Part shown: piece after piece, positions 35,772 to 64,000 of the stretch
Layout: each line of letters begins with the position of its first letter
How positions within the stretch are numbered: the first letter of the stretch is position 1
NCBI GenBank assembly: GCA_964501945.1
Contig: CAZCTY010000002.1
Location: forward strand, 2,541 to 66,540
From: an uncultured Methanosarcinales archaeon
GTDB taxonomy: Archaea > Nanobdellota > Nanobdellia > Woesearchaeales > 21-14-0-10-32-9
Reading direction: 5' to 3'
Length of the DNA: 64,000 nt
Made by a program: the position numbers and the translations under genes
The notes under the pieces: generated by a model
Databases searched by the model: none
What the model was told of the DNA's origin: nothing
Seen by the model: only the letters and a program-made list of their open reading frames with translations

Positions 35772-35778
35772 CCATAAT

Positions 35779-47654: not shown

Positions 47655-47879
47655 TTATTTTTGATGAGGCTTCAACCTTTTAATCCCCATAGGCAAAACT
47701 CCTTGCTCAAACTCTTTTTTAGCAATATCTAAAGGATTATACTTTAATTCCTCTAATTGCTTTTTTGAGAGCTTGATTAAAAAAGGAGCACCCATGCTGA
47801 TTTGAAGAGCTCTCGCCCCAATCAATCTAGCTTTCTCATATTTAGTAATATGGCCTTTTGGAAGATCAATTTTAACCAT
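47655..47879 (-). CDS. rpoK: RNA polymerase subunit K (Rpb6 homologue)
   Basis: [22 protein letters not shown]...[16 protein letters not shown]. Its start codon abuts the rrp42 stop codon. Confidence 0.9.
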
Positions 47880-48665: not shown

Positions 48666-48675
48666 TGTGAATACC

Positions 48676-49380
48676 TCATACTTTTTTATACTTATTTTTC
48701 AAAGCATCTCTTTGAACTTCAGCAATTTTTTTAAGAGCAGGCTTTACCATTTCCATGCCCTCAAATAAATCTTCCCTTGAAACTATACCATCCATTTGAA
48801 GAAGAGTTATCTCCTCAGTGCTTGGAATCATAGCCACAGGGACATCAGCCGCTTCGTTTTCATCCATGTGCTCCTCAGGACCATCAAGGTCTACAAGCAA
48901 ATTACCTCTAACCATGCCAAAAGAGACAGATGCAACCATGTCTTTCATAGTTATACCCGCATCAGCTAGAGCAATAGCTGCAGCGCAAATACCTGCGCAC
49001 CTACTACCCGCGTTGGTTTGAGGCAACTCAATGAAAACATCAACTACTGTATTAGGATAATCCCTCAAATCAAGAACAGGCCTCAAAGATTTCTCTGTAA
49101 CCATGCTAATTTCCTTACTCCGACGAGACGGACCAGGTCTAACCCTATCCCCATCACCAGAGAATGGAAGCATACTATAATTACACCTAAGAACGCCCGC
49201 CTTAGGATCTTGCAAGAACTTCGGATGAAGCTCACGCGGACCATAAACCGCTGCATAAGCCTCAGTGTTCCCAATTTTAAAACGAGCAGAACCATCCGCT
49301 TTTTTAATAACGCCCGCCTCAGCTTCAATAGGACGAGGCTCATCAAATTTTCTTTTACTAGGTCTTTCAAATTTAGTCAT
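48676..49380 (-). CDS. rrp41: exosome complex exonuclease Rrp41 (RNase PH-like, catalytic)
   Basis: ADGSARFKIGNTEAYAAVYGPRELHPKFLQ..PGPSRRSKEIS..DVFIELPQTNAGSRCAGICAAAIALADAGI. Confidence 0.88.
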   Translation of the reverse strand: MTKFERPSKRKFDEPRPIEAEAGVIKKADGSARFKIGNTEAYAAVYGPRELHPKFLQDPKAGVLRCNYSMLPFSGDGDRVRPGPSRRSKEISMVTEKSLRPVLDLRDYPNTVVDVFIELPQTNAGSRCAGICAAAIALADAGITMKDMVASVSFGMVRGNLLVDLDGPEEHMDENEAADVPVAMIPSTEEITLLQMDGIVSREDLFEGMEMVKPALKKIAEVQRDALKNKYKKV

Positions 49381-50126
49381 TGTTGATCACCTTGATTATT
49401 TTGAGAATCATCGTTCTCTTTTTCTTCTAAATCAATTTTTTTACCAGTTTTCTTTTCAAGAAACTCTTTAATTTTATCAGTCATGCCCTGATGATGACTT
49501 TCAGCTTCAATTTTTTTGATTGTCTCAGATACAAGTACTTCCATTTCAGGAGAACCTTCAAACCAAATCACACCGTTTTGACCAATCATAATCTTACACT
49601 CAGTAGCGTTTTTAATCATAGAAACCATAGAACCTTTTTTACCGATGATTCTTGGAACCTTGCTAGGATTAACTCTCATAATCCTACCACCCCTAAGCTT
49701 TTTGAGACCAGGGCCTTTTGCAGTTACATCAATTAAATTTTGACTTGTAACATTTGTAATTTTAACCATTACATAATCTTCTAAATTGAAATACCTAGTA
49801 AGATCTGCTCCTTTTGCAATAAAGTCAAAACTAGCATCTTTTAGAGGTAGAACCGCGGAGTAAGGACAATTAATGTCAAGCCTCCAACCACTCATTAAAA
49901 TGTCATCTACTTTACCAATAATGACATCATTTTTTTGAGGTAAATACCTCCCACTCATAGGGATAGTTCTCAAAACCTTACCTTCAACTGCAAGCAAGCC
50001 AAGCCTGTTTGCAAGTATTTCATCATTTAACCTATACGTCCCATTACTAGGCAAATACTCAAGCCCCTTGGCAAGTACTTGGCCCGGGACTACAACTTCT
50101 TTGTCTTTTGCTAATAATTCTCCCAT
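49377..50126 (-). CDS. rrp4: exosome RNA-binding subunit Rrp4 (S1 plus KH)
   Basis: VVPGQVLA..GRYLPQKNDVIIGKVDDILMSGWRLDINCPYSAVLPL followed by KH-like IIGKKGSMVSMI. Overlaps rrp41 by 4 nt. Confidence 0.85.
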   Translation of the reverse strand: MGELLAKDKEVVVPGQVLAKGLEYLPSNGTYRLNDEILANRLGLLAVEGKVLRTIPMSGRYLPQKNDVIIGKVDDILMSGWRLDINCPYSAVLPLKDASFDFIAKGADLTRYFNLEDYVMVKITNVTSQNLIDVTAKGPGLKKLRGGRIMRVNPSKVPRIIGKKGSMVSMIKNATECKIMIGQNGVIWFEGSPEMEVLVSETIKKIEAESHHQGMTDKIKEFLEKKTGKKIDLEEKENDDSQNNQGDQQ

Positions 50127-50160
50127 TTTATTTTTTCACCTTTCATATTTTTTAAAAATA

Positions 50161-50898
50161 TTATTTCATTAAATCAACTTCAGCAGAGCCCTTTGTTTTA
50201 GCACCTAACTCCTCCATTATATCAGCATAAATCCCCGCGGGAACTTTAAGCTTGCAAACAAAAGAGCCATCACTAAGCCAATCCTCAGATTCTATTTTCC
50301 CCTGATTCCTTAAATAGCCTTGAAGCTTTGCAGCATATTGAACAGGCAACCTGATCTGCAAAGTTTTCTCCTCTATCCTAATAGGAATTACAGGTTTTAG
50401 CTTAGAGACAATTTCCTGAATTTGATCATCAGCACTCTTATACTCATCAATTTTCACCTTAGCCTCTTCCATAGCCGATTCAATCCTAGTAGATGGATGA
50501 GGAAGACCCGATTTAGGATCAATTGCGAGCCTGTGAATTTTGTAAATAATTTTCTTTTTCTTCTCCTCTCTGAGTTTTTCACGATGCTCAGCAGATAATT
50601 GAATTTCGCCTTGCTGAATAATTTTCAAAGCAACCTTAAAGTTATCAGTTGTTAAGAAAACTTTCTCCAAATCCACCTCGGATGCAAGCGTGCCTTTTTT
50701 AGCATCAGAGAAAATATTTTCAGATTTTAATAATTCAGATAAGTCTTCAAGAGAATCAGAACCCTTGTTTTTGAAATCTATTGCAAGATCAGGATCTACA
50801 ACTATCTCAAATGTTTTCCCAAACTTTTGAAACCTAACAAGGTTAAATTGAACTTTTTCATGCGTGAATATTTTTTCACCAACTCTCATAAAGACCAC
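50161..50898 (-). CDS. sdo1: SBDS (Shwachman-Bodian-Diamond / Sdo1) ribosome maturation protein
   Basis: LVRFQKFGKTFEIVVDPDLAIDFK, three-domain length, and conserved superoperon position. Confidence 0.85.
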   Translation of the reverse strand: MVFMRVGEKIFTHEKVQFNLVRFQKFGKTFEIVVDPDLAIDFKNKGSDSLEDLSELLKSENIFSDAKKGTLASEVDLEKVFLTTDNFKVALKIIQQGEIQLSAEHREKLREEKKKKIIYKIHRLAIDPKSGLPHPSTRIESAMEEAKVKIDEYKSADDQIQEIVSKLKPVIPIRIEEKTLQIRLPVQYAAKLQGYLRNQGKIESEDWLSDGSFVCKLKVPAGIYADIMEELGAKTKGSAEVDLMK

Positions 50899-50911
50899 CT
50901 CAAATTATTAT

Positions 50912-51628
50912 TTATTTACAAAATTTTTCAAGTTTCTCTTTTGAAACTTTTTCCATCTCTTTTGTTTTTAGAGGAATCACAGCCGCATCAAGCCTTTCTG
51001 CTTTAAAGTTATCATTTAAAACTTTTTTAAGCATTTTAATTGCAAGCTGCAAACCCTCATCCATAGTCATATCTTCTTTGTACTCAGCGTGCAACATTTC
51101 CTCAATGTCTTGCTCGCCTTCCCCGATAACAGTTGCTTTATATTGATAGTAAAGCCCAGTTGGATCAGTTTCAAATAAAGACATGCCTGTTGAGTCAATC
51201 CCTGCAACTAATAAAGATATACCAAAAGGTCTCAGACCACCAGATTGAGTGCAAAGTTGCTTTAAATTACACATATCTTTTATTATCGCGATGTTATCAA
51301 TAGGATTATCATATTCAACGCGGTGCTGCTGAGCTTTTACTTGAGAACGCTCAACTAATACACGAGCATCAGATAGTATACCCGCAGCTGTTGCCATTAT
51401 GTGATCATCGATTTTGAATATTTTCTCTATCGCATCAGGAACAACTAACTTATCAATTAATCTTTTATCCGTTACAAGTATTACCCCGTCTTTACAAACC
51501 ATGCCAATAGCTGTGTTTCCAAGACGAACAGTTCTCTTAGCATATTCAACTTGTAATAAACGCCCGTCAGGACTGAACATAGTTATTGCACGGTCATAAC
51601 CCATCATTTGGTGTTGTACTGGTTCCAT
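50912..51628 (-). CDS. psmA: proteasome subunit alpha
   Basis: YDRAITMFSPDGRLLQVEYA and GNTAIGMVCKDGVILVTDKR. Confidence 0.93.
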   Translation of the reverse strand: MEPVQHQMMGYDRAITMFSPDGRLLQVEYAKRTVRLGNTAIGMVCKDGVILVTDKRLIDKLVVPDAIEKIFKIDDHIMATAAGILSDARVLVERSQVKAQQHRVEYDNPIDNIAIIKDMCNLKQLCTQSGGLRPFGISLLVAGIDSTGMSLFETDPTGLYYQYKATVIGEGEQDIEEMLHAEYKEDMTMDEGLQLAIKMLKKVLNDNFKAERLDAAVIPLKTKEMEKVSKEKLEKFCK

Positions 51629-51636
51629 TCTTATTC

Positions 51637-51996
51637 TTACCTCCTATTACTCCTAGGTTCATCTCTGGCTTTGTTTACAGAGCCAGAAACCTTATTTGTT
51701 TTAAGTATTACCTTATTCGAGCCAAGCTCGTCTATAAAAAGAAGAGATGCTTTTACACGATCAAGATATTTTGCAGACACCCTGATCATAGCTTTATCAT
51801 CTTTAAAGTCAAGAGGAATGATTCCTGCACCTGCAGCATCAAAAATTCCTAGATGATAATTAATTTTTTCCACGAGTTCTCGCAGAGGCCTTCCAATATA
51901 TGAACCTTTTTCTAAATTTACCAATTCTATGTTCATATACCTTTTTTTTTCTTTAATGCTAGGCATAAGACCTTTTATTCGTCTCATAATAATCAC
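51637..51996 (-). CDS. rnp2: RNase P protein component Pop5 (Rnp2)
   Basis: LMPSIKEKKRYMNIELV..GIFDAAGAGIIPLDF..AMIRVSAKYLDRVKASLLFIDEL..VSGSVNKA. First gene of the superoperon, with GGTGA 7 nt upstream of its ATG. Confidence 0.75.
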   Translation of the reverse strand: MIIMRRIKGLMPSIKEKKRYMNIELVNLEKGSYIGRPLRELVEKINYHLGIFDAAGAGIIPLDFKDDKAMIRVSAKYLDRVKASLLFIDELGSNKVILKTNKVSGSVNKARDEPRSNRR

Positions 51997-52207
51997 CTAG
52001 AAGAACCAACCCTCTCTCCATTCTTCTTCGTATATGACGGGGAAACAAAAAATCGTTTATAAAGTTTTGTTTTTAATAGAATAATAAATGTTTTTTAGTT
52101 ATTGCTGAGTAATAAATATTATAAATGGAGAGTGATTTCTTAACACATAAAGCTTACACAAAAACTGTTGTGATTTAATTCAATTAATTTAAGTGAGAGG
52201 TCAATAC

Positions 52208-53332
52208 ATGAAGCTTAGACACAGAGAAATAGTTAATTCAGCGTGCATTTCAGCACTCCTAGTTATTAATGCAGCGAATTTTACAGAAGGAGATGAGCCT
52301 AGCTTGAAGTATTTGAGAAATGCAAAGAATACTTTAGAGACTGCTGTGAATAAAATGCCGAATTTTAGTGAAGGTTTTAAGAGAACATCTGATTTTTTTT
52401 TAAAAACGAAAGATAAATTAAAAGATGTCGCGAGTAGAATTGATTTTGGCCAAGATACAGATGAGGAATATTTTGAAAACGATAGCTTTGATTATGAAGC
52501 TTTGATTAATCGCGCATTAAAAAGCGATGAACATAACCTTGTTGATTCTGTTATAAAATTTGTTCCAAAAGATTTCCTTAGAGAATACATAGATAATGAA
52601 GCAAAAAATAGCAATCCTAATTATAATCGCTTAATGCTCGCATCAAGAACAGGCGAGGAAATTAGAGATAAGCGATTTAATAGCGGAAGAAATTTTAATG
52701 AATCACTTAGAAATATGGCCGCGAGTGCGAATGTTAGACCTGGATCTTTTGGAAGCCGAGGAGAACTTAAAGAATTTTTAGATTTGTATAAAGATGATTT
52801 CGTAGAGGTTGCAAAAGAGTATGATTTAAATCCTTCTCTGCTCGCAAGCATTGCAAGCGTTGAGAGTCGAGGAAGAACGTTTACAATTTCAAATACAGGA
52901 GCACTCGGAGCGTTTGGACAGACAAGCTATGCATATATGCCTCAAACTAATTGGTTTGATGGAAATGGACGAGATGCAATAAATCCTTTTCATACATTAG
53001 AGGCCATGGATAGAGCCGGCGATATGATTAGAGGATTAATTGATTTATATGCACGAGTTGATGATGAACACCACACATTAGCATTAACAACATACAATCA
53101 AGGAGAAGCCGTTGTTAATAGAGCCATAAGATTGGCAAGACAAGAAGGCATTTTTGAACCTAAAAAAATAATTCAACACACAAATAATACAAGACGAGAT
53201 AGAAATATTTTTTCAATCGCAACACGTGAGGGAAGAAATTACTCCGCGCATATTCAAAGAGAAAATGTTATTATGAGCGAGTATTTTAATACTCAATTTG
53301 ATAATCTTGCAAATACTCATTCATATGAATAG
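52208..53332 (+). CDS. SLT-domain (GH23) lytic transglycosylase with an N-terminal region of about 200 aa of unknown function
   Basis: LLASIASVESRGRTFTISNTGALGAFGQTS (E-S...S..GA.G..Q signature) and LTTYNQGEAVVNRAI (AYNxG motif). The ATG at 52208 has a GAGAGG RBS upstream. The track ORF starts at GTG 52193. Weak hydrophobic N-terminus ACISALLVINAANF. Confidence 0.75.
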   Translation: MKLRHREIVNSACISALLVINAANFTEGDEPSLKYLRNAKNTLETAVNKMPNFSEGFKRTSDFFLKTKDKLKDVASRIDFGQDTDEEYFENDSFDYEALINRALKSDEHNLVDSVIKFVPKDFLREYIDNEAKNSNPNYNRLMLASRTGEEIRDKRFNSGRNFNESLRNMAASANVRPGSFGSRGELKEFLDLYKDDFVEVAKEYDLNPSLLASIASVESRGRTFTISNTGALGAFGQTSYAYMPQTNWFDGNGRDAINPFHTLEAMDRAGDMIRGLIDLYARVDDEHHTLALTTYNQGEAVVNRAIRLARQEGIFEPKKIIQHTNNTRRDRNIFSIATREGRNYSAHIQRENVIMSEYFNTQFDNLANTHSYE

Positions 53333-53381
53333 AAAACAATAAAAATGAGAAGAACAATACATAAGTATATAGGTGATTTAT

Positions 53382-54050
53382 ATGAGTAAAAAAATACCTA
53401 AGCCCTTAGAGGAGATGATTAGTAGAGCAGAAGCATTAGATGTATATACATTCGCACTCAACCACAGACATGAAGACTTCATTATAAACCCAAAGCAAGA
53501 ACTCATTAAAGAAAAAGGACTTGACGCTGCAAGAGCTTATGTTAAAACAGTAGAAGGCCGAGAAGATTACGGTAAACGAGGAGCTGATAAGCTTAAAGAG
53601 ATTTTTTTTGAAGAGTTTAATGTTGATAAAAGCAATTATAATAAATCAGAACTAGAAACATTAACTAAAACACTTTATGGAATGAATAAGAAAAATATTT
53701 CTGAGGCAGTTGCAAGACACGGCTTAGAATTAGATGTTGAAACGTATAAAGAAGAATTTTTAGGCAATCATTTAAGCCAAATTAAACAATATGTTGTAAA
53801 TCACCACATAAAAAATTATGATGCAGAACACAACCCTGCAATACTTGACCACATATTACATGAAAATCATAAAACATATTTTAGAGAAGACGTATTACCC
53901 GAGCTTAAAACTGATCGCGCGAAAGATTATGTAGTCAACTCTTTTTTAAGATGGAAACTTGAAAAAAAGCAACAATCACCCCTAGGAGTTAAGGACATAA
54001 AAGATACGGGGTTTTCTGAGTATTTGAAAAAAGAATACTTGAAACAATAA
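53382..54050 (+). CDS. hypothetical protein, paralogue A (no signal peptide)
   Basis: The ATG at 53382 has AGGTGA upstream (the track start GTG 53373 lies inside that RBS). It shares a QELIKEKGLDAARAY motif with the next gene. Confidence 0.45.
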   Translation: MSKKIPKPLEEMISRAEALDVYTFALNHRHEDFIINPKQELIKEKGLDAARAYVKTVEGREDYGKRGADKLKEIFFEEFNVDKSNYNKSELETLTKTLYGMNKKNISEAVARHGLELDVETYKEEFLGNHLSQIKQYVVNHHIKNYDAEHNPAILDHILHENHKTYFREDVLPELKTDRAKDYVVNSFLRWKLEKKQQSPLGVKDIKDTGFSEYLKKEYLKQ

Positions 54051-54200
54051 CCTTTTTTTCTTTGAAAAACAACCTAAAATGAATGTTTTTGTCACTTAAA
54101 AGTGAATAAAAGCGAAACATTTATATAGTTTGAGTACTTAATAGTAGTATAAAGATAAGATTTTTTTAGATAAACAATCTAAAAAAACGAGGTAAAAAAA

Positions 54201-54845
54201 ATGTCAGATAAAAAAGATGAACCAACACCAGCCGAAAAGGCACAAAAGAAAATAGTCAAAGGATACAATGAAACAGTCCCAGGCGCAGTATTAGATTTTA
54301 AACACAAACAAGAAAAAGTACCCTACGATATCAGAGAACAGTTAATAAAAGATAAAGGCGCACCTGGAGCAGCAAAGTTCCTAAATACCGAAGATGGACA
54401 AAAATACATGATAGAACACCTAAAAGCAGGAAGCGAAAAAGTAGGATATGAAAGCCTGAAAAAAATAGGAAAAGTAGACGACTACTTAGCTGCACAATTC
54501 ATGGGAAACTTCATGCTAAACCAACAAGCACTAGCACAAGAAGTAGGCAGAAACGGATCACAATTCGACGGCGGAAATTACATGAAAGTACTACAACCAA
54601 ACATAGGAAACGTACAAGAAGGAGCTTTACTTAGAGTTGCAAACAGTTACGACCCAAAACTATCATCAGAATTACTTAAGAAAACAGGCACAGCAAAGTA
54701 CATGAAAGATACAAAAGACGTAAGCCCAACACAAGTAACACAAATAGTAGGTCTTGATGAAGGTGGAAAAAACCCACAAGGACCAAGCACACTAAGACAA
54801 CTAGGACTTGAAGATAAATTAAACGAAAAATACAGATTAAACTAA
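54201..54845 (+). CDS. hypothetical protein, paralogue B (no signal peptide)
   Basis: GAGGT RBS 9 nt upstream. EQLIKDKGAPGAAKF aligns with paralogue A, and the two are similar in length. Confidence 0.45.
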   Translation: MSDKKDEPTPAEKAQKKIVKGYNETVPGAVLDFKHKQEKVPYDIREQLIKDKGAPGAAKFLNTEDGQKYMIEHLKAGSEKVGYESLKKIGKVDDYLAAQFMGNFMLNQQALAQEVGRNGSQFDGGNYMKVLQPNIGNVQEGALLRVANSYDPKLSSELLKKTGTAKYMKDTKDVSPTQVTQIVGLDEGGKNPQGPSTLRQLGLEDKLNEKYRLN

Positions 54846-54852
54846 ACTGACT

Positions 54853-54942
54853 AAAAAAAAACCTTTTTTATTTTTTTTATTTAATTTAATTTTTTAGTAT
54901 AAAATATTTCTATTACAAAAAAAAAGATAAAGCAAAAAAAAG
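54853..54942. terminator. convergent intergenic region with oligo-T runs on both strands
   Basis: T6 (54864-54869) and T8 (54871-54878) follow the plus-strand gene. A9 and A8 runs (T-runs on the minus strand) lie at 54913-54940, downstream of the 733-aa gene. Confidence 0.35.
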
Positions 54943-57144
54943 TTAAGATTTAGACACAGTGAATGTTTGAGGATACCTTTTAGATGCATTGTTTACCAAA
55001 TCAAACACTTCCAAATCTTGATGAAGCAACAATTCCTGATAATCATAAGACGGATAGACAACATCAAAATAATCTACAGATAACAAATCATCTTTAGATA
55101 TGTTAAAAGTAAATTCATCCCTCAATTCCATGAACCCAAGAACTAAAGATTCATTAAAAACAATCTTTTCTAAGAAAACTTCCTCATCATCAACAAATAA
55201 GCCACTAATAAAACCATCAGGACCAACTTCATAAGTCTGATTTTCAATTACCCAAGGCTCATCTAAATCTAAAGAACTAACAACTTGAACGTTATACCTA
55301 CCCGGGACAAACCCCACAACATCAGACTCATGAGGCGCTTCAAAATCAACAACCCTAAAAAACTCAGAATCACCAGGCTCTTGAACCCTACTAAAAATAA
55401 CAACAACAGATTCATCATCATAAGGCAAATGCGTAGACTCACTCAACGCAACAGACCACTCCCTTGAAAAATCAGGCTCATCAGGAAGAGGATAAAGACC
55501 TAATTGAGGAGAGAATCTTAAAGTTCCAACACTAACCTCAACTTCTCTTTCAGGATAAACCTCAAAATCAACTTCAACAACGCCATCATCAACAATAAAG
55601 TCTTTAGTAACAGGAGATGCGAAGTAAGAATAATCATTAATAGATAAAGTGCCCCCAATACAAGGAGGAACATAAGTTTCAACATATACTTCATCCTCAT
55701 CTAATACCTCAAGATAAATAGATTCAGAACCACAACTATACTGAACAGATAAATCATAAACAGGATCAGATGTGTACGCATCAAATAAATTAATCCTAAC
55801 AGGAACAGTCCTCTGATCAACCGCTCCAAAACCACTCTCAAAGACATCATCCTCATCAAAATCAAACTCAGGGAAATCATCAAGCAAAGAAACCCTAGGC
55901 TCATTATTAACCAGATTAACAGTTACAGGGAATTGAAAAAAGAAACCATCCCCACCAAAAGAATCAGATTCTTCTAAAGTTATAAGAATAGGATAAACTA
56001 AGTCATAAGCATACTCATAACGCGTAACCCCAACCTCACCAATTAAAGGCATATCAACAGAACTACCCGCGTCCCTAACAGGACCAACCATGTCCCCCGA
56101 ACTTGGAAGAATATCTAAAAACATAGGCCACGAGCTAAAGAAATTAAACCTTACTTTAGTACTCTCAAGAACCTCAGGCTCAACTAATTCCAAAGGAAAT
56201 TGAAACTGAGAATAAATACCATCCAAATAAGGATTTTGCGTCATAGGAACATAAGAATCCCTCGAACCCCTAATTTGAAAATAAGGAACAGTCTCTTGAA
56301 GAGTTTGTTTTAACTCTTCCTCAACTGATGATATAGACCAAAACCTAAAGGAAGGCCCCATCTCAACATCAGGAGAGATAGGAGGAATATCAGCATCCTT
56401 GCCACCCATACTCAAAATAGATAAAATGAGACGAGTAGATTTTTCTAAGAAAGGCTCCTCATCTAAGAACTGAGTTTGAAGAGCAATTTGAGACGCTAAT
56501 TCATAAACATCCCTAAAACGAACATCAACAGTATTACTAAAACGACTAATAGATGAATCAAGGCCAGACGGAAATACAATAGATAAAGGATAATTTAAAC
56601 CAATGAAAACATCATCATCCCTAAAACGAACATCCGCAGACGGCTCTGCAGGAATAACCTCAAAGTCCTCATAATCCTCAAAATTATTAACACACTCCAA
56701 AATATTTTGCTCAACGTAATTACCAACCTGATACGCAATAGAACCACGACCACCAGATAGAGGAGGCACATTAAAAACATAAGAACTACCCTCATCCCTA
56801 GGAGAACCATCAAAATACAACCAAAAAGGCAAAACCCTATCACTACCCTCAAATATTTCTAAACCGGTATTCAAATAAGCAGGCTCATAACCATACATAA
56901 CATTACTCGCATCAGAAAAACCACCAGACCTACCAAGATCTTCAAGTACTTCACGACCAAGATCAGCAATACAATGATTAACACTATTCACCAAAGGCTG
57001 CAATTGAGCATCAACATCCTCAGAGAATTCATCTTCAACATCTAAATCAGGATCAACTTGAAAGATAAAAAAGAAAGCAATAAATGCTAAAATAAATACA
57101 ATCAAACCCAAAATGACAAATATAGTAACCTGACCTTTTTTCAT
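54943..57144 (-). CDS. 733-aa acidic, Lys-poor surface protein with an archaeal class III (type IV pilin-like) signal peptide
   Basis: The N-terminus MKKGQVTIFVILGLIVFILAFIAFFFIF has a basic n-region, Gly at -1, Gln at +1 and a long hydrophobic stretch. The ATG lies 2 nt after the upstream gene's stop, with GGTGGGGG inside the upstream gene's last codons. Confidence 0.6.
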   Translation of the reverse strand: MKKGQVTIFVILGLIVFILAFIAFFFIFQVDPDLDVEDEFSEDVDAQLQPLVNSVNHCIADLGREVLEDLGRSGGFSDASNVMYGYEPAYLNTGLEIFEGSDRVLPFWLYFDGSPRDEGSSYVFNVPPLSGGRGSIAYQVGNYVEQNILECVNNFEDYEDFEVIPAEPSADVRFRDDDVFIGLNYPLSIVFPSGLDSSISRFSNTVDVRFRDVYELASQIALQTQFLDEEPFLEKSTRLILSILSMGGKDADIPPISPDVEMGPSFRFWSISSVEEELKQTLQETVPYFQIRGSRDSYVPMTQNPYLDGIYSQFQFPLELVEPEVLESTKVRFNFFSSWPMFLDILPSSGDMVGPVRDAGSSVDMPLIGEVGVTRYEYAYDLVYPILITLEESDSFGGDGFFFQFPVTVNLVNNEPRVSLLDDFPEFDFDEDDVFESGFGAVDQRTVPVRINLFDAYTSDPVYDLSVQYSCGSESIYLEVLDEDEVYVETYVPPCIGGTLSINDYSYFASPVTKDFIVDDGVVEVDFEVYPEREVEVSVGTLRFSPQLGLYPLPDEPDFSREWSVALSESTHLPYDDESVVVIFSRVQEPGDSEFFRVVDFEAPHESDVVGFVPGRYNVQVVSSLDLDEPWVIENQTYEVGPDGFISGLFVDDEEVFLEKIVFNESLVLGFMELRDEFTFNISKDDLLSVDYFDVVYPSYDYQELLLHQDLEVFDLVNNASKRYPQTFTVSKS

Positions 57145-57146
57145 TA

Positions 57147-60100
57147 CTACTCAACCCCCACCCTTTGACAAAGCCTATTATCTCTAACACTTACAGCGTG
57201 AAAATAATCAGACAACCTATTAGTTTCAAATTCAATACAAAACTTCTCATAAACCCTCTCAGAACTGAAATCAGAAGGATTACTAAAACCACCAAAACTA
57301 ACCCTAGTGTTAGCCCCAGAAATTAAAATATCATCTCCTGCGACATTATTAGTGTAATCGTGCTCCCTACCAGAAGAATCATACGCAACGAGCCTAAACC
57401 TCAAGCCCTCAAGCTGAGCCTCCACCCCACCTTGAATCCAATAATCATAAAAACCTAATTCATCAGGAGAAGAAGTCCTCCTCGCAGCAATGAAAGCACC
57501 AGGCCTAGTACCACCACCAGCCCTAGTAGTAATAGAACCAGACGCACCCGCAGGAGGCGCAACAGGCTCATTGAAAGAATCATCACAAAAAGCCCTCTCA
57601 GGCTCAGTCACATAATCTAAAGACATAGCCAACTGACCCATAGCAGTATCATCCCTCCACTCACGATTATCAATACCAACAATGTCCGCTGCAATAGATA
57701 ATCCAAGCGCGCCCTCACGCATACGACCAAAAGAAGACATAGACTCATAACGCTCAGCTTGCTCAGCCATGTATTCATTAAACGCAATTTTTATACCATC
57801 CATAGCCTCACCAAACCAAGACCTACTACCCTCAGTTATCTCATCATTCATAGCACGCCTAAGCTGCCTACGATTAAGATCGTCAATATCATCAATATTA
57901 TTATCATCTAAAAGCTCTCGAATAAATTCCTCACTATACCCCGTTTCTCTTGAAATAATGTTCCAATCCAAATCATTTAAAGAATCCCTACGCCCCGCAT
58001 AATTATCTAAGACATCAAATACAGGCTGAAGCTCATCACGCCTATTTTGCTCATTAGTCAAACGCCTCGCCTTCTCCCACCTAATCTCAGCAGCCCTAAC
58101 CGCATAATCATACGCGACCTCGTTTTCAGCATAATAAGCAGCATAATACTCATTTATGTACTCCTTCATAATATCCTCGGCATTGTTATCTGCCAATAAA
58201 CCTAAAAAGCCCATTTCATCAGGCATCGAACCAAGATTAGCCTCAGCTTCATCTAAAAAATTATTTAACTCATCAAGCTCATTTTCTAATCTTTCACGAG
58301 TACCACTATCTAAAGCCTCCCAATCAGTTTCCTCTAACTCATATTGTATTGCAGATAACACACCAATATAAACAGGATCATAACTATCTAAAGCATCTAA
58401 ATCATCAAAAGCATTTTGCAAAGCTTCCTTTCGAACACCATCTACACCTTCCCAATCAGTATTCTCCAATTCATCACGAATAGCACCCATCCTCATAGAC
58501 GTATCTATATAAAATTGATCTAAAATTTCTCTTCGCTCACCCGCTAAATCAGTTAAACTATCATAACGAGAATCTAAGACATAACCCATTTGATTACCTT
58601 CAGGACCATAAACTAATAACTGCCTACCAATATCCACAGTATCCTCAGAAGTCATAATTGTCCTACCAATGAGCTGATCATCACCATCATATATGTAACA
58701 AGTATTACCCGTACACATAGCCCTATCCCCACCATCACCAAGAGGCATCTCCGTAGGTTCATATTCATCAAGGAATGTTTCTCTACCATAACCAAAACCT
58801 TCACGCTGAGCATCCATCTCCCAATTCCTCTGAATCATACCAATCGCACCAGTTAAAGCAGGAGAACACCTATCTTTAACATCATCACTCATACCAAAAC
58901 CCATCATTAATTGATCAACTGTACTTCTAATACGCTGATATTGAACAGGCAAACTCATAGCAGTTTGAGCAACAACACAAGCCCCATGAGCACTCGCAGA
59001 ACCAGTAGATAATAACCTACAAGCATAAGGGATCGCCCCACCAAGAAGAGCTGCAGGATCACGAATCATATTTTGAACGTCTTGCGCCGCATTAGTAAAC
59101 ATGTTAGTGAAAGGTAAAGCATACAAAACATTACCCGCCGTTCTAATACAATGATCATAACCACGATTACGCTCACAATGCTCAACAGATAAACCCATAG
59201 TACTAACACCTTCATTTAAACAAAGAGCATAATTACACTCAATACCCTGAGCAACCCTCCTATGATAAACAAAAGCAGGAAGACACATAGTCGCAACAGC
59301 CACATATTCACTCTTATATGGATTAAATAACTCCCTACTAGACATACTAAGATTACTCGCTATATCATCAACCCTCAAAGTCTCTCTTAAATCACCAAGA
59401 CCAATAGTGTCACTGTAAAAAGAATCAACCCAAGAAGATTCACACGCAATCGCCTCACACACAGGAACACCCAACTCAGCTAAAGTACCATAAGTCTCAT
59501 CTAACCCCGCAGTAACCGGCTGAAGAGTTTGACCTAAAGGCGCACCAACAACAGATGCCTCCGCGGCGGCCTGAGTCGCACCAAGCGCACCCCTAGCAGT
59601 ATCTGCTGAATGAGTAGCCCTACAAAGACCTTGAATCATATTAAGCGATTGCTCTAAACCATCAAGACGCCTATCAGTACGCTCAACACGCTCATTAACA
59701 GCATCAATTGTTTCATAAATTTTCTCATCAAGAGTGTAACCTTCTTCTAAATCAAATTTAACAGTGAAGTTTTTTTGCTCAGGAATCGCATAAAAATAAC
59801 CAAGATCAACAGACCTCAAATCTAAGCCACAATTAAATTCCAAAGTATCATAATCAGCATAACGATGATCATCACGAATAGTAAGACCAGCCCCCCTAAG
59901 TGTTAAACGAAGATACGCCACGTTAGATTCCTTATTAACATCTAATAACCTCAAATTAGAAACATCCCCCCTACGACCAGTTTCATTCTCAACAACAGGC
60001 AAACACCTAAAATTAGAAATATCAACAGATACCAAATCAGCATCCCCAATTAATTCAACTTCAAGGAAAATATCCCTACTATAAGCCAAGTTCCTAATCG

Positions 60101-61199
60101 TAAGAGAGTCAGCTTGCTGATTAACATTACCAACAGACCAAAAATCAGGAACCTCATCAGATTGAACTTCAACAATGTCAACAGAAACAGAGGAGTGAAC
60201 CTCATTACCAGCAAGATCTGAGAAAATAACAGGAATTTCATAAACTCCCTTCTCAGAGACAAAAGAGGTAACATCAATAGAACAAACAAAAACACCATCC
60301 CTATCAACACATTCACGAGAAAGATTAGCAGAGTTCACAGGATCACCAATGACCTTCATTTCAACAACAGGACTAACATCCTCAGATACATTAGCCCTAA
60401 TAGTAAAAGAATCAGAAACCCTCGTAATACCTAAATCAGAAGACTCATCAACACCAATAAACTCAACTACAGGAGGAGAAGAATCACAAATAAATTCACC
60501 AACCTCAGACGGAGAAACACGCATACCCGCATCATCCCAACTACGCTGATTATCAATACGCGCAGTAATACTGCTACCATCAGCACAAGAAAAAGAAGCT
60601 GAAGTAAAACCCCTACAAGTAAAATCCTCACAATCACTAAGTAAAGCAGTACTCTGACCGATACGCGCCCTCACATTACCTCTACTAAAACCAACATCAG
60701 AGTTTTCTAATACAACAGATAAGTTGTTAATACCAGAAGATACATAACAAGTACCATCATGACACTGATTAGACGTAAAAGACGAGACACGAGGAGTAGA
60801 AGTTGCAAGTTGCAAAGAAACATTTTCTTGCACGATGACACCTTGCCTGCTAAAATAGAATTCAAATACACCATCCCCATCGTTTTTTAATAAACGCAAG
60901 TTATTAATCCTACAATTAAATACACCATTTTCCTCGACGCAGTTAGGCGCAATACTATTGTAATTAGCAATATTTGAATCATAACCAAAAGCCTCATTTA
61001 CACCAGAAGCATCAACGACTAAGTTAGAAGCATTAGCTGAAAATTCTAAGTGAACAATAATAAGATTACCCCTAGAATAATGAGTAACCTCACTACCCGC
61101 AGCAGTGAATGAAAGATCACTAATTTCTAAGGAGAGCGCAGGCGATGAGAGTAATAATAAGAAAGACAAAAAAAACAATGAATATACTATAAATTTCAA
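57147..61199 (-). CDS. 1350-aa secreted, Cys-rich, acidic giant protein of unknown family
   Basis: TTG start with GGTG 6 nt upstream. Sec-type signal MKFIVYSLFFLSFLLLLSSPALS/LE. The N-terminal half is beta-rich with paired Cys, followed by a central Cys-rich helical block, acidic 44-aa repeats and a beta-rich C-terminus. No TM anchor. Confidence 0.6.
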   Translation of the reverse strand: MKFIVYSLFFLSFLLLLSSPALSLEISDLSFTAAGSEVTHYSRGNLIIVHLEFSANASNLVVDASGVNEAFGYDSNIANYNSIAPNCVEENGVFNCRINNLRLLKNDGDGVFEFYFSRQGVIVQENVSLQLATSTPRVSSFTSNQCHDGTCYVSSGINNLSVVLENSDVGFSRGNVRARIGQSTALLSDCEDFTCRGFTSASFSCADGSSITARIDNQRSWDDAGMRVSPSEVGEFICDSSPPVVEFIGVDESSDLGITRVSDSFTIRANVSEDVSPVVEMKVIGDPVNSANLSRECVDRDGVFVCSIDVTSFVSEKGVYEIPVIFSDLAGNEVHSSVSVDIVEVQSDEVPDFWSVGNVNQQADSLTIRNLAYSRDIFLEVELIGDADLVSVDISNFRCLPVVENETGRRGDVSNLRLLDVNKESNVAYLRLTLRGAGLTIRDDHRYADYDTLEFNCGLDLRSVDLGYFYAIPEQKNFTVKFDLEEGYTLDEKIYETIDAVNERVERTDRRLDGLEQSLNMIQGLCRATHSADTARGALGATQAAAEASVVGAPLGQTLQPVTAGLDETYGTLAELGVPVCEAIACESSWVDSFYSDTIGLGDLRETLRVDDIASNLSMSSRELFNPYKSEYVAVATMCLPAFVYHRRVAQGIECNYALCLNEGVSTMGLSVEHCERNRGYDHCIRTAGNVLYALPFTNMFTNAAQDVQNMIRDPAALLGGAIPYACRLLSTGSASAHGACVVAQTAMSLPVQYQRIRSTVDQLMMGFGMSDDVKDRCSPALTGAIGMIQRNWEMDAQREGFGYGRETFLDEYEPTEMPLGDGGDRAMCTGNTCYIYDGDDQLIGRTIMTSEDTVDIGRQLLVYGPEGNQMGYVLDSRYDSLTDLAGERREILDQFYIDTSMRMGAIRDELENTDWEGVDGVRKEALQNAFDDLDALDSYDPVYIGVLSAIQYELEETDWEALDSGTRERLENELDELNNFLDEAEANLGSMPDEMGFLGLLADNNAEDIMKEYINEYYAAYYAENEVAYDYAVRAAEIRWEKARRLTNEQNRRDELQPVFDVLDNYAGRRDSLNDLDWNIISRETGYSEEFIRELLDDNNIDDIDDLNRRQLRRAMNDEITEGSRSWFGEAMDGIKIAFNEYMAEQAERYESMSSFGRMREGALGLSIAADIVGIDNREWRDDTAMGQLAMSLDYVTEPERAFCDDSFNEPVAPPAGASGSITTRAGGGTRPGAFIAARRTSSPDELGFYDYWIQGGVEAQLEGLRFRLVAYDSSGREHDYTNNVAGDDILISGANTRVSFGGFSNPSDFSSERVYEKFCIEFETNRLSDYFHAVSVRDNRLCQRVGVE

Positions 61200-61292
61200 C
61201 GCTCACACCTTTTTTATAACTAGTTGTGTTTTTATTTAAATATTTTTCTAATAAATATAGACTAAAAACTGATAAATGAAAAAACAAAAAAA

Positions 61293-62321
61293 TTACTTAT
61301 TAATCGATAAAACTTCTCTATTGAAAAACTTAATTACTAATACACAAAGAGCAACAGCAATAGGCCCAATTATCAAACCAATAACACCAAATAGTTTTAT
61401 ACCACCAAAAATAGATAATAAAACAAGAATAGGATGCATACCCGACCTCTTACCAATAATCCTTGGACGCAAGATATTCTCAATTGAAAACATTACAATA
61501 GAACCAAACAATAATAACCCAATACCACCCCAAAGAGAACCATACATTATCTCAAGGATACCTGCAGGAGCCCAAACAGCAGGCGTTCCAAGAATAGGAA
61601 TAAACGCCAAAATAGCCATTATAAAACCCCAAAAAACAGGATTACTCAAACCAAAAGCAAAGAAAGCAAGACCCCCAAGAATACCTTGAAGAATAGCAAT
61701 TAAAAGCTGACCATACATGACACCATAGAGAATTTTTTTAGATTCAACACTGATTTGATCTTTATGACTTTTAGATAAAGGAACAAGATCCATAATACTC
61801 ATCAAAATATGATCCCCATCTTTGAAAATATAATACAATAAAAACAACATAACAAACAAACCAATAAGCACATCAGCCAGAGAACCAATCACTTCAATAA
61901 TGGATGCAGATAAAGCCTCATTTAAATTATCCATTAAAACAAGCGCAATTTCCCTTGTAGAAACCTCAAAGCCAAGAGTATTTTCAACAAATAAATCAAC
62001 ATCAGCAAAGTCATACCCCGCAAGAGACCTATACGTAGAAGTCGCCTCTTTTACAAGACTATTAACAAAGAAAAAAGAACCCGCAATAATTAAAATAAAA
62101 ATAAGAAAAACAAGCATTAACGATGAACGCTTAGCACTAATACCCCTGCGTTGCAAGTACTTGTTTAAAGGAAAAAAGAAAATACCAAAAACACCACCCA
62201 TAATTAAAGCATAAAGAAAAGGCCTAAAAATAATAATTAATGAAACAATAGATAAAATATAGAGCAATAAGAATATGTAAAAAACATTTTTATTACCCTC
62301 ACCTTTTCTTTTATTACTCAA
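61293..62321 (-). CDS. AI-2E family (PerM/TqsA, UPF0118) transporter
   Basis: Polytopic protein with YGVMYGQLLIAILQGILGGLAFFAFGLSNPVFWGFIMAILAFIPILGTPAVWAP. Confidence 0.8.
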   Translation of the reverse strand: MSNKRKGEGNKNVFYIFLLLYILSIVSLIIIFRPFLYALIMGGVFGIFFFPLNKYLQRRGISAKRSSLMLVFLIFILIIAGSFFFVNSLVKEATSTYRSLAGYDFADVDLFVENTLGFEVSTREIALVLMDNLNEALSASIIEVIGSLADVLIGLFVMLFLLYYIFKDGDHILMSIMDLVPLSKSHKDQISVESKKILYGVMYGQLLIAILQGILGGLAFFAFGLSNPVFWGFIMAILAFIPILGTPAVWAPAGILEIMYGSLWGGIGLLLFGSIVMFSIENILRPRIIGKRSGMHPILVLLSIFGGIKLFGVIGLIIGPIAVALCVLVIKFFNREVLSINK

Positions 62322-62396
62322 AAAATATCACCTGCAGATAAAAAATAAAACAAAGTAGTATATAAATTTGTTGTAAATTTTATGAAAAAAAAGCTG

Positions 62397-63635
62397 TTAA
62401 AACTTTTTTATAATAACCGATTTAACAGTGTCATGCTCGCTTTCTTTAATCGTGATTAAGACTTTTTGACTATTAATAGAGTATGATTTGTTAACATCAA
62501 CACTATCAAGACGCTCAGCTAAGAACTTAGATATAGGCTTGAACTCATTAGTAATAGGCAGTGAAACATTGAGCTTTTTATTAATCGTCCTGATAAAAGT
62601 TTTACCCTTAACAAGCCACTCACCATTACCCAAGGATTTGATTAAAGAACTAACACGATCTTCCTCATCATATATATCACCCACTAACTCCTCCAAGATA
62701 TCCTCAACTGTAACTAAACCAATAACTTTTTTTCTAGCACCTAAAACAATAGCTAAATGATTATTCCTCTGCTGAAGCTCAGTTAAAATCTCATCAATTT
62801 TTTTATGCTTATTTACAAAGTAAACAGGACTCATAATAGATTTGAGCTTAACATCATTATTACCCTTATAGATTTCACCCATAACATCATGAATGGTTAA
62901 CATACCCCGAATTTTTTCCCTACTAGATGCATGAATCGGAATCCTAGTAAAACCATGCTCAATTATTAGAGGCGTAGCCTGCTCAACAGACAAGTTCCAA
63001 TCAAGCGAGAAAATACTACTCGCAGGAGTCATAATCTTGTGAACAGAAACATCATCCAATTTGAAAGCCTGTGTGATTATATTTTTCTCATTTTTTTTAA
63101 TCTCGCCCTCCTTCGCGCCAACATGAACCAAGTATTTAATCTCGCCCTCAGTTACAAGAGGATCAGGATTCTTATTACCAGATAAGTTATTGACAAGAAT
63201 GCTCAAATAACTAAAAGCTTTAACAAAAGGATAAAATAAATAATACAAAAATACGAGGATAGGCGAGATTGCAAGAGCAATTGTTTTAGAATTGTTTACA
63301 ACAAAAGTTTTTGGAATTATCTCACCAAAAGTTAAAATTACAAGAGTCATAACACCAGTGATTAAACTAATACTAGTATTTTGAAAGAAATCAAAGGAAA
63401 TTTTAGTTGCAAGAGCAGAACTTGCAACGTTAGTAATATTATTACCAATAAGAATAGTTATCAGAGAATCGTTAGGATTATTTTTGAGCTTTAATAAAGC
63501 ATGAGAGTTCCTAACATTTTTTTGAGCGAGCTGCTCAGCTTTTAATTTAGATGTGCCAACTATTGCAACCTCAGAGCCACTGAAAAAAGCAGATAGCGCA
63601 ATCGTTATTATTATTAAAATAAATTCTCCCTGCAT
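62397..63635 (-). CDS. CNNM/CorC/HlyC-family transporter (DUF21, CBS pair, CorC_HlyC)
   Basis: N-terminus IIITIALSAFFSGSEVAIV (DUF21), then GEIIPK, a CBS pair (IMTPASSIFSL.., GLVTVEDILEELVGDIYDE) and a C-terminal transporter-associated domain. Confidence 0.8.
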   Translation of the reverse strand: MQGEFILIIITIALSAFFSGSEVAIVGTSKLKAEQLAQKNVRNSHALLKLKNNPNDSLITILIGNNITNVASSALATKISFDFFQNTSISLITGVMTLVILTFGEIIPKTFVVNNSKTIALAISPILVFLYYLFYPFVKAFSYLSILVNNLSGNKNPDPLVTEGEIKYLVHVGAKEGEIKKNEKNIITQAFKLDDVSVHKIMTPASSIFSLDWNLSVEQATPLIIEHGFTRIPIHASSREKIRGMLTIHDVMGEIYKGNNDVKLKSIMSPVYFVNKHKKIDEILTELQQRNNHLAIVLGARKKVIGLVTVEDILEELVGDIYDEEDRVSSLIKSLGNGEWLVKGKTFIRTINKKLNVSLPITNEFKPISKFLAERLDSVDVNKSYSINSQKVLITIKESEHDTVKSVIIKKF

Positions 63636-63775
63636 TTGAATACTCTAAAAGAGATAGATGAATAAGATTATATAAATAATTTTCTAAAAAAAAGACGAAA
63701 AAAATAACAATATAAAAAATAATTTATAGAAAAAGGGTAAAACTATTTAAATGAGTTATGATATGATTTTTTTGT

Positions 63776-64000
63776 ATGGCAAAAACTATTTCACGAGACA
63801 CACCACTCGCAGAAGTTACACTTAGAAAGTATGAGAAACCAAGCAGCCTTGAGGGAAGAGAACTTGTACGCAAGTTTTGCTTGAGCATAGGATTACTACA
63901 ACCAGGAGATTCACGAGACGTAGTAGTTGATGTCCTGCACGTTTTTTTAAAAAATAAAGGAAAAGAACTAAGCTCTGTTGAAGTTGAGAAATTAGTAATC
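63776..64000 (+). CDS. conserved archaeal winged-helix-like protein, 3' end cut by window edge
   Basis: An open frame runs from ATG 63776 to the window end: MAKTISRDTPLAEVTLRKYEKPSSLEGRELVRKFCLSIGLLQPGDSRDVVVDVLHVFL. It is absent from the ORF track because no stop is reached. Confidence 0.4.
   Translation, partial: MAKTISRDTPLAEVTLRKYEKPSSLEGRELVRKFCLSIGLLQPGDSRDVVVDVLHVFLKNKGKELSSVEVEKLVI

Follow-up and report, generated by a model that had tools for sequence, protein, structure and literature searches.

What is a pilin-type signal doing at the front of a protein of 733 residues? The question is raised by a reading frame (54943..57144, minus strand) in the 64-kb stretch of DNA analysed here (the window), whose host is a DPANN (Woesearchaeota-like) archaeon and not a methanogen. 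Archaeal class III signals are recognised by a processing site that lies ahead of a hydrophobic (H) domain near the N-terminus, by Gly, Ala or Ser at position -1 and by a charged residue at -2 (PMC4371748). It is already established that such signals can stand on large non-pilin proteins. At issue here are whether the signal is genuine, which enzyme would process it, and what use a DPANN archaeon would make of it.

The reading frame starts with an ATG, which is the correct start codon because homologues open with the same MKKGQ; its first 30 codons (57055..57144) correspond to MKKGQVTIFVILGLIVFILAFIAFFFIFQV. As the initial annotation had described for this reading frame, the N-terminus (MKKG/QVTIFVILGL...) has a short basic n-region (MKK), G at -1, Q at +1 and a long hydrophobic run. 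Directly after K3-G4/Q5 come 24 uncharged residues, followed by a strongly acidic stretch. Checked by hand, the protein has its site before the hydrophobic domain, a -1 residue from the set G/A/S and a charged -2 residue (K3). From family conservation and the published criteria for class III signals (PMC4371748), the leader peptide M1-K2-K3-G4 (57133..57144, minus strand) is predicted to be cut off after G4, and the H-domain Q5-F28 (QVTIFVILGLIVFILAFIAFFFIF; 57061..57132, minus strand), which is free of charge, falls in conserved columns and lies within a helix (residues 2-29) in the AlphaFold (AF2) model, would form the hydrophobic helix at the mature N-terminus. No other real reading frame in the 64-kb window has a class III motif, and none has a higher N-terminal hydropathy. 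The pI of the protein is 4.05, against 5.3-7.6 for cytoplasmic proteins, which fits an extracytoplasmic location, and all four of its cysteines occupy family-conserved positions. Judged by this acidity and these conserved Cys pairs, the protein is clearly an exported one. Lipobox, Tat and archaeosortase signals were ruled out, there being no lipobox Cys, twin-Arg motif or C-terminal sorting signal.

The 733-aa protein belongs to a large DPANN family, for which it served as the query. A word-index search returned 9 homologues, and at 50% identity and E<=1e-3 the family comprises 8,370 representative clusters, nearly all of them full length, whose named sources are all DPANN archaea. Residues in the signal columns are present in 135 of the 140 sequences of alignment A2, which are 20-50% identical to the query. 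Only three residues occur at -1, G (91 of the 135), A (34) and S (10); 130 sequences have K or R at -2, and 134 have Q at +1. Within the H-domain of the same alignment, +3 is T (121) or S (9), +5 is F (126) or Y (9), +9 is G (128) or A (9) and +21 is Y (90) or F (30), and beyond +22 the columns become polar and variable. No other run of 12 residues in the protein is as conserved as residues 2-13, and the signal with its H-domain is the best-conserved stretch overall, the remainder being only about 21% conserved per column; the same peptide, in the form K[KR]GQ[VIA]T[IV]F[VI], was also chosen as the search pattern by which loci were found. The leader before Q ranges from 4 to 20 aa across the family, so it is the cut site, rather than the start codon, that fixes the register. 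Conservation in 135 aligned relatives also excludes a chance origin of the motif. Judged by these sequences, what stands at the N-terminus is a genuine class III (prepilin-type) signal of archaea, one of those with Q at +1, for which cleavage is predicted, and the earlier assignment to this class extends to the whole family.

The +1 Gln had also been read as a trait of the EppA-processed pilins of methanogens, and this reading is supported, with reservations. EppA requires Q at +1, and KGQV is the predicted processing site of the Methanococcus maripaludis pilins EpdB and EpdC (PMC4371748); KGQV, KGQI and KGQL are processing tetrapeptides of proven EppA substrates. The window protein thus shares its tetrapeptide with EpdB and EpdC (EpdE has KGQI), and shares with the Epd pilins generally the Q at +1, a hydroxyl residue at +3, a charged residue at -2 and a small one at -1. 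Unlike the Epd pilins and the DUF361 pattern (QXSXEXXXL), the family has F and not E at +5, and G and not L at +9, and where the pattern asks for S at +3 it mostly has T; Pfam PF04021 (Class_IIIsignal/DUF361) was matched neither by the query (E<=0.1) nor by 68 family members (E<=0.05). The family further differs from the Epd pilins in its cargo of about 700 aa, a pilin being well under 200 aa, and in coming from DPANN archaea, whereas the Epd pilins are from a methanogen.

A candidate cognate enzyme for this signal is encoded in the same window, 50 kb from the 733-aa gene (4696..5559, minus strand). Its product is an A24 (type IV prepilin) peptidase by its match to Pfam Peptidase_A24 (E 4.7e-15), and its full-length relatives are labelled A24 or prepilin peptidases in Woese- and Nanoarchaeota. 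In an alignment with M. maripaludis FlaK (3S0X) it keeps the two catalytic Asp motifs, as SITDF and GGGDAK. FlaK, its closest solved relative, does not accept Q at +1. The local peptidase (281-287 aa) carries a conserved C-terminal extension, and PF06847 is found in some relatives.

Genes for a pilus ATPase, a platform protein or small pilins were not found in the 64-kb window. Related Woesearchaeota that bear the family (loci L017 and L088-L090) encode one T2SSE ATPase and two half-size T2SSF platform proteins, in which they resemble the Epd system; this layout has been reported for methanogens and DPANN archaea as 'system 1' or Epd-type. This ATPase is widespread in the lineage: among the matches listed, more than 100 Woese- and Nanoarchaeota clusters share it at 65-93% identity. 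The small pilins of the related Woesearchaeota (KAQAAMEF, KAQASIEV, RAQASMEY) combine Q at +1 and E at +5 with a [KR][GA]Q site. Within 10 kb on either side of the family genes at 84 related loci, T2SSE, T2SSF, A24 or SLT genes were linked to the family at one locus only (L017), and in one clade the family pair lies about 5 kb from the pilus locus with a MetRS gene between them.

The family has no relative in Pfam, NCBIfam or the PDB. Neither the full protein (Pfam at E<=0.1) nor its first 70 residues nor 68 family members (Pfam at E<=0.05) matched Pfam or NCBIfam, and a sequence-profile search of the PDB with the 733-aa protein yielded nothing beyond a marginal match to a collagen-binding domain (E 0.03). 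The confident AlphaFold model comprises a transmembrane helix, a linker, an alpha/beta domain and beta-sandwich domains. Helix 2-29 is followed by a break of 16 residues and a second helix at 46-72; the continuous alpha1 of about 50 residues packed on a beta-sheet head, which is a trait of pilins, is absent from the model. The acidic linker between helix and globular part (Q29-D45; 57010..57060, minus strand) varies in length and sequence in alignments A1 and A2 and is mostly non-helical in the model, with a short helix at 36-39. The alpha/beta region (about residues 46-425; 55870..57009, minus strand) is modelled with pLDDT mostly >90 and contains the invariant C58 and C151 together with YW, YxYD and ExN motifs; short relatives of 300-346 aa retain only the first 240 or so residues of the family protein. 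Residues 30-440 were modelled alone to unmask the N-terminal domain (pLDDT 84.7), and a Foldseek search of the PDB with this model returned nothing below E 0.01 (best 0.028); none of the matches was to the fold of a pilin, peptidase or glycosidase. The C-terminal domains (about residues 445-733; 54946..55812, minus strand), which include C471 and C495, are all-beta in the model and appear to be beta-sandwiches of an Ig/CnaB/transthyretin-like kind. Searched with Foldseek against the PDB and BFVD, the full model gave weak, generic tandem beta-sandwich matches only, including tandem Ig-like adhesins and Gram-positive pilins, with TM-scores <=0.27 for the multi-domain matches in the PDB.

The genomic neighbourhood supplies a partner. 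The adjoining gene (57147..61199, minus strand) encodes an acidic, Cys-rich secreted protein of 1,350 aa that has a Sec-type signal but lacks a membrane anchor, and 2 nt separate the TAG stop of this gene from the downstream ATG of the 733-aa gene. Other neighbours are the genes of an AI-2E transporter and of an SLT-domain protein. When related loci were gathered with a 10-sequence alignment of the family, the gene of a giant secreted protein abutted the family gene on the same strand in 75 of 103, with a median gap of -4 nt. These giants are 600-2,300 aa long, carry Sec signals but lack an anchor at the C-terminus, and are homologous across loci. Some members have Ig-like domains, and all share a conserved Cys-rich C-terminal part; 39 of the giants, searched against Pfam, gave only scattered Ig-like and fn3 matches. 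The pairs often number one to three per locus, beside housekeeping genes, and at some loci an operon holds several divergent paralogous pairs.

We consider it fairly probable that the 733-aa protein is a processed, pilin-like anchored adaptor that holds its giant partner, whether at the tip of a pilus or from the membrane, as a surface attachment module. Sec would insert the precursor so that its H-domain lies in the membrane, and the A24 aspartyl peptidase would cut behind Gly4 on the cytoplasmic face and remove MKKG, so that the mature protein would begin with Gln5 and the hydrophobic helix QVTIFVILGL... would be its sole hold. The acidic, disulfide-containing ectodomain would then project from the cell on a flexible linker, the alpha/beta region first and the beta-sandwich domains beyond it, where it may serve as adaptor for the anchorless, Sec-secreted Ig-repeat giant that would be translated from the same mRNA. 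The motif with its conservation, the peptidase gene, the pairing of the two genes and the predicted fold are observed; we infer cleavage, topology and pilus incorporation, and partner binding from gene order only. The two proteins probably constitute a cell-surface attachment module, which in this DPANN archaeon would act in adhesion.

Two end states of such an adaptor can be envisaged. Its helix may be built into the core of an Epd-like type IV pilus, with the protein as the first subunit at the tip, in parallel to the bulky GspK-type minor pilins that have no Glu5 and to the minor pilins that hold PilY1; alternatively, the protein may remain in the membrane as a stalk. Large size and a hydrophobic +5 residue, where the other pilins have Glu5, form the signature of first or tip subunits (PMC5207764), and the 733 residues and F at +5 seen here, against E at +5 in the small pilins of related Woesearchaeota, correspond to it. 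The 733-aa protein accordingly resembles the GspK family and other tip minor pilins in being far larger than a major pilin and in its hydrophobic +5 where the other pilins keep Glu5. It differs from them in having no sequence or fold similarity, in a gene that lies outside any minor-pilin cluster, in the linker between helix and head and in its archaeal origin. The minor pilin-PilY1 pair is matched by the nature of the partner, a Sec-secreted non-pilin protein of more than 1,000 aa (PMC7541494; Makarova 2016). The substrate-binding proteins of the Sulfolobus bindosome (GlcS, AraS, TreS) and other non-pilin class III proteins likewise place a large functional ectodomain on a class III signal. 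Bindosome genes lie away from the pilus machinery and beside functional partners, and their products are processed by the general prepilin peptidase, as is predicted for the 733-aa protein. Unlike the bindosome proteins, the 733-aa protein has no substrate-binding domain (Pfam) and no ABC transporter as a neighbour, its partner is a giant Ig-repeat protein, and its +1 residue is Q.

The alternative that survives best, and which we regard as a real contender though the less probable account, is that processing takes place but no polymerisation follows, and that the protein forms instead the membrane stalk of a two-component surface layer of which the giant is the outer sheet, as SlaB (anchor) and SlaA (lattice) do in the Sulfolobales. 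SlaA and SlaB are encoded by an adjacent gene pair and comprise a large secreted protein that lacks an anchor and a smaller one, rich in beta-sandwich domains, that is anchored in the membrane. The tight two-gene operon described above, with an anchored protein of about 700 aa and an anchorless Sec protein of 1,000-2,300 aa, speaks for such a layer, as do the very wide distribution of the family, the frequent occurrence of one to three pairs beside housekeeping genes and the flexible linker that the model places behind the helix. Linkage to pilus genes is not general, and functional pilins that are retained in the membrane are known in H. volcanii. Weighing against the stalk is that neither sequence nor fold similarity to SlaA, SlaB or any S-layer protein was found, so the comparison is one of functional analogy only. 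The anchor of SlaB is C-terminal, whereas that of the 733-aa protein is N-terminal and pilin-like; a plain anchor would need no conserved T+3, F+5, G+9 and Y+21; and several divergent paralogous pairs in one operon would be unusual for a lattice protein.

It is improbable that the N-terminus stays uncut and serves as the signal anchor of a type II bitopic membrane protein in which K-G-Q is incidental or serves some other purpose. In either case a long hydrophobic helix would stand behind a basic n-region, and the linker that separates helix from ectodomain in the model suits an anchor. Against this, position -1 is restricted to G, A or S in all 135 sequences and position +1 is Q in 134 of them, behind a leader of variable length, which is the pattern of a cut site and not of an anchor; a matching A24 peptidase is present in the window, and the small pilins of related Woesearchaeota share the [KR][GA]Q site.

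We give very little weight to an ordinary Sec signal, cut by signal peptidase I behind the hydrophobic region with release of a soluble protein. Such a signal would account for the export of this acidic protein with its conserved Cys pairs. Substrates of signal peptidase I are expected to have an H-region shorter than the 24 residues seen here, however, and no small-x-small site follows the H-region (...FFFIF/QVDPD), where the family columns past +22 turn variable and polar. What local Sec signals look like can be seen in the neighbouring giants, for example ...PALS/LE and ...VYSA/SVFA. That the protein is a structural (major) pilin, for which the class III signal and conserved H-domain could be cited, can be set aside in view of its 733 residues with an ectodomain of about 700, its hydrophobic +5 where the small pilins of related Woesearchaeota have E5, and the position of the family genes outside pilus loci. 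The initial annotation had preferred a minor or tip pilin or a pilin-anchored surface protein over a major pilin, and size, predicted fold and gene context agree with that preference.

The preferred reading, an anchored adaptor with a giant partner, bears on how these organisms touch other cells. DPANN archaea live attached to other cells, and the proteins that make this contact are, to our knowledge, largely unknown. A very large unannotated family of 8,370 clusters, whose best-conserved feature is a pilin-type signal and whose genes are translationally coupled to those of giant secreted Ig-repeat proteins, is brought to light here, and the pair is a concrete candidate for an attachment module. 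The Q(+1) 'Epd/EppA' signal class is extended from methanogens to DPANN archaea, and the distinct H-domain signature QxTxFxIxG...Y could be used in class III signal predictors or in a Pfam or arCOG model. More speculatively, and less probably than not, the pair might be the host-attachment organelle of Woese-, Pace- and Nanoarchaeota-type DPANN, in which an adaptor that caps an Epd-type pilus or forms a membrane stalk would present a giant Ig-repeat adhesin, both with folds that have no solved relatives; it would then be an independently evolved counterpart of the minor-pilin/PilY1 tip complex.

The 733-aa protein is encoded on the minus strand by an ATG-initiated open reading frame (54943..57144), the first 30 codons of which (57055..57144) read MKKGQVTIFVILGLIVFILAFIAFFFIFQV. 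Its ATG lies 2 nt beyond the TAG stop of the upstream gene for a 1,350-aa protein, here called the giant, and the start codon is considered correct because four homologues share the MKKGQ beginning. An initial annotation had described a basic n-region, Gly at -1, Gln at +1 and a hydrophobic run, and this layout is borne out by the n-region MKK, Gly4, Gln5 and 24 charge-free residues (Q5-F28), followed by the acidic stretch QVDPDLDVEDEFSEDVD. In N-terminal hydropathy this ORF ranks top among all window ORFs, and a motif scan of six frames and all alternative starts revealed no second credible ORF of the KGQ-signal type in the window.

Since K-G-Q followed by a hydrophobic helix in a single sequence could be an ordinary signal anchor, it is comparative evidence that decides. 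A word-index search yielded 9 relatives, with named sources all Woesearchaeota or Nanoarchaeota MAGs, and searching 1.84 billion cluster representatives with a profile gave 8,370 matches with E<=1e-3, of which 1,622 reach E<=1e-30. Among the 150 matches listed, almost every one is full length, measuring about 650-790 aa. An alignment of 140 family sequences, just 20-50% identical to the query, contains 135 with residues in the signal columns. Relative to the predicted cut after Gly4, position -1 is occupied by G (91), A (34) or S (10) and no other residue, position -2 by K or R in 130/135, and position +1 by Q in 134/135; within the hydrophobic helix (H-domain), the residues are T (121) or S (9) at +3, F (126) or Y (9) at +5, G (128) or A (9) at +9, and Y (90) or F (30) at +21 (n=135). 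Residues 2-13, KKGQVTIFVILG, form the best-conserved 12-residue stretch of the whole protein in this alignment, and K[KR]GQ[VIA]T[IV]F[VI] was picked independently as the most conserved scanning peptide during the related-locus search. The leader ahead of Q ranges from 4 to 20 residues, and the register is therefore fixed by the cut site rather than the start codon.

A signal peptidase I (Sec) signal is unlikely, given the 24-residue H-region, the lack of a small-x-small site after it, and the Sec signals of local proteins, which look unlike this N-terminus. An uncleaved signal anchor leaves unexplained a -1 position limited to G, A or S, the invariant +1 Q or the variable leader length. The family signal shows every feature in the published description of archaeal class III signals. 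Predicted processing sites of M. maripaludis pilins read KGQV (EpdB/C), KGQI (EpdE), KGQL (EpdD) and RAQI (EpdA), and EppA, the peptidase of these Epd pilins, needs Q at +1 (PMC4371748). The N-terminus of the 733-aa protein is very probably a processed class III signal; the class III signal proposed in the initial annotation is upheld by these features and by conservation in 135 relatives.

The window also encodes a Peptidase_A24 protein of 281-287 aa (4696..5559, minus strand; Pfam E 4.7e-15). Aligned with the solved FlaK of M. maripaludis (3S0X), it keeps both catalytic aspartate motifs (SITDF vs SVQDF and GGGDAK vs GGGDGK in FlaK), and its full-length relatives in Woese- and Nanoarchaeota are labelled A24 or prepilin peptidase. 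Beside this gene are bacterial-type acetate kinase and phosphotransacetylase genes and an L-lactate permease gene (2083..3573, 5594..6754 and 6751..7740, minus strand); few archaea are known to possess the Ack-Pta pair. The remaining window genes are housekeeping (RNA polymerase, aminoacyl-tRNA synthetases, an exosome/proteasome cluster, ribonucleotide reductase), and no T2SSE ATPase, T2SSF/FlaJ platform gene or small pilin was found within the 64 kb. The ribonucleotide reductase is a class II (B12) enzyme of 1,155 aa with a TSCPD domain, whose barrel domain is matched in two stretches, which may reflect an insertion. An NrdR-like repressor (Zn ribbon and ATP-cone), a regulator known chiefly from bacteria, precedes the reductase; the two lie at 25045..28512 (reductase) and 28528..29025 (repressor) on the minus strand. 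Across 1..64000 the minus strand holds nearly all genes, including tRNA genes Lys-TTT and Asp-GTC (16380..16555), and GC skew stays below zero over the whole length (cumulative -7.6).

In the related DPANN loci L017, L088/L089 and L090 (L090 and L073 are one contig), a family gene and giant lie about 5 kb from a pilus locus comprising one T2SSE ATPase, two half-size T2SSF genes and 4-5 small proteins, with starts that include KKAQAAMEFLMTYGW, RKAQASIEVVLL, RAQASMEYLMV and KKAQTWSLDV. Their pilins carry Q(+1) and E(+5), and the loci match the 'system 1'/Epd layout reported for methanogens and DPANN (bioRxiv 10.64898/2026.04.22.720090). The assembly ATPase and platform, whose absence would have counted against the initial annotation, are present in these relatives. 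The T2SSE ATPase of related genomes shows 65-93% identity across >100 clusters among the matches listed, the named ones mostly Woese- or Nanoarchaeota. The relatives' loci and the peptidase therefore indicate that the lineage has Q(+1) pilins, the machine and the peptidase. The 733-aa family has -2, -1, +1 and +3 in common with the local small pilins, whereas F replaces their E at +5. The initial annotation regarded the protein as atypical for a major pilin, and size together with the +5 residue indeed rules out that identity. Assignment to Pfam Class_IIIsignal/DUF361 fails on E+5 and on the HMM, and the classical pilin fold test also fails; the protein is therefore not to be filed under either, and its processing route is most likely the same as theirs.

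Searches with the 733-aa query, its N-terminus and 68 diverse relatives matched no Pfam or NCBIfam model, and no related PDB sequence was found. The AlphaFold2 model from the 140-sequence alignment is confident (mean pLDDT 91.6, pTM 0.76) and predicts an N-terminal helix (residues 2-29), an acidic variable linker (30-45), a second helix (46-72) running into an alpha/beta region that ends at about residue 425, a disordered loop (430-436) and all-beta domains from residue 447 to the C-terminus. By Foldseek, the C-terminal half bears a weak generic likeness to tandem Ig/CnaB/transthyretin-like adhesin domains, for example the B. anthracis TIE protein, the Gram-positive pilins SpaA and BcpA, and phage fibre proteins, with TM-scores <=0.27 for PDB multi-domain matches; residues 30-440 modelled separately (pLDDT 84.7) matched nothing in the PDB at E <0.01, nor any pilin head fold. 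The pI of 4.05 (vs 5.3-7.6 for window cytoplasmic proteins) and four Cys, all at family-conserved positions, fit a predicted extracytoplasmic, disulfide-bonded ectodomain. The secreted 733-aa and giant proteins, with pI about 4.1-4.3, are markedly more acidic than cytoplasmic proteins. A 496-aa Sec-signal protein (43999..45489, minus strand; pI 6.6), which matches DUF11 weakly and, in NCBIfam, the 'putative S-layer protein' and 'choice-of-anchor' models faintly, is a further candidate envelope protein, not acidic, unlike these two. Short relatives of 300-346 aa (L027 3133..4173, L080 19928..20947, L082 8435..9337, L083 8015..8929) retain just the signal and roughly the first 240 residues; in L027, L082 and L083 a same-strand protein of 730-1,030 aa follows, to which the giant profile gave no match.

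The giant (57147..61199, minus strand) is acidic, has 28 Cys, starts with a Sec-type signal (...SSPALS|LE) and lacks a membrane anchor. Homologues flank family genes in L003, L005, L006 and L007; in L003 (5887..10001) the gene is broken by a 100-N scaffold gap, and gene callers therefore give just small spurious ORFs, but tblastn confirms its presence. Across 84 DPANN loci from GTDB genomes, a giant-family member directly adjoins 67 of 111 family genes, and a same-strand neighbour of at least 600 aa accompanies 75 of the 103 full-size family genes at a median intergenic distance of -4 nt, typical of translational coupling. Giants have Sec signals, a Cys-rich conserved C-terminal part and, in some members, Ig-like/fn3 domains; they lack a C-terminal TM segment. 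Many Woesearchaeota carry two pairs per operon (famA-giantA-~416 aa-~294 aa-famB-giantB), as in L006 (12136..22139) and L039 (12052..21378) and similarly in L018, L019, L023, L025 and L026. The middle genes encode a ~416-475-aa secreted protein and then a ~294-aa membrane protein; famB, a paralogue of 640-690 aa, shares the KGQ.T.F signal, and giantB reaches >2,000 aa with He_PIG/Ig domains. In L058 (6408..8691) and L076 (460..2358), three or four small class III-like proteins (N-termini KRGQTQEIF, KRGIAVTF, KKGQLEIGI, KKGQAEIIG) directly precede the family gene, in L058 after two large secreted proteins of 622 and 1,470 aa, and may be a family-associated minor-pilin set in some lineages.

Divergent from the 733-aa gene are an SLT lytic-transglycosylase-domain gene (52193..53332, plus strand; Pfam E 3e-7) and two unknown genes (53373..54050, 54201..54845); L003/L004 keep the SLT gene and one unknown gene there. 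The window also encodes an M23 peptidase (21915..22688, plus strand) and a papain-family C1 protease that is secreted (17722..19191, minus strand). The archaeon should be without murein; the SLT, M23 and C1 genes may serve to attack bacteria on which it lives or preys, or may have been acquired by horizontal transfer.

We propose that the precursor would be inserted into the membrane via Sec and MKKG cut off by the A24 peptidase, leaving a mature product with Gln5 at its N-terminus and the conserved hydrophobic helix retained. In M. maripaludis EpdE, cyclisation turns the N-terminal Gln into pyroglutamate, and Gln5 could undergo the same change. The ectodomain would tether the co-translated, anchorless giant at the cell surface. 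This full adaptor-plus-giant surface module is likely; its cleavage, topology and partner binding are predictions, as is any polymerisation. The initial reading of a minor or tip pilin, or a surface protein anchored through pilin-like assembly, is supported with caveats, and both placements of the helix stand. It may lie in a pilus, as first or tip subunit: H-domain conservation far exceeds the needs of a passive anchor, and the protein shows the signature of such subunits, being far larger than other pilins with a hydrophobic +5 where others have Glu5 (PMC5207764). Pairing with a >1,000-aa Sec-secreted non-pilin is also reminiscent of minor pilins that hold PilY1. Alternatively, the protein may remain in the membrane as a stalk. 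In favour of this are a 16-residue linker that interrupts the helix, models that show no pilin head fold, and family genes that in general lie apart from pilus loci (linked within +/-10 kb at 1/84 loci, and otherwise just in the clade of L017/L088-L090); the pair would then resemble bindosome-type or SlaB-like anchoring.

Pilins that are large and modular or sit at the tip are known in bacteria. Class III signals are also established on large cargo other than pilins, as in Sulfolobus sugar-binding proteins, proteases and redox proteins (PMC2910488; bioRxiv 10.64898/2026.04.22.720090), and the flagged signal is therefore ordinary in kind. What is new is the family itself, which is very large, unannotated, without solved relatives and DPANN-restricted among all named sources, its own H-domain signature QxTxFxIxG...Y, and the conserved coupling of its genes to giant secreted proteins. 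The 733-aa protein and the giant represent a concrete, testable candidate for a DPANN cell-surface attachment apparatus.
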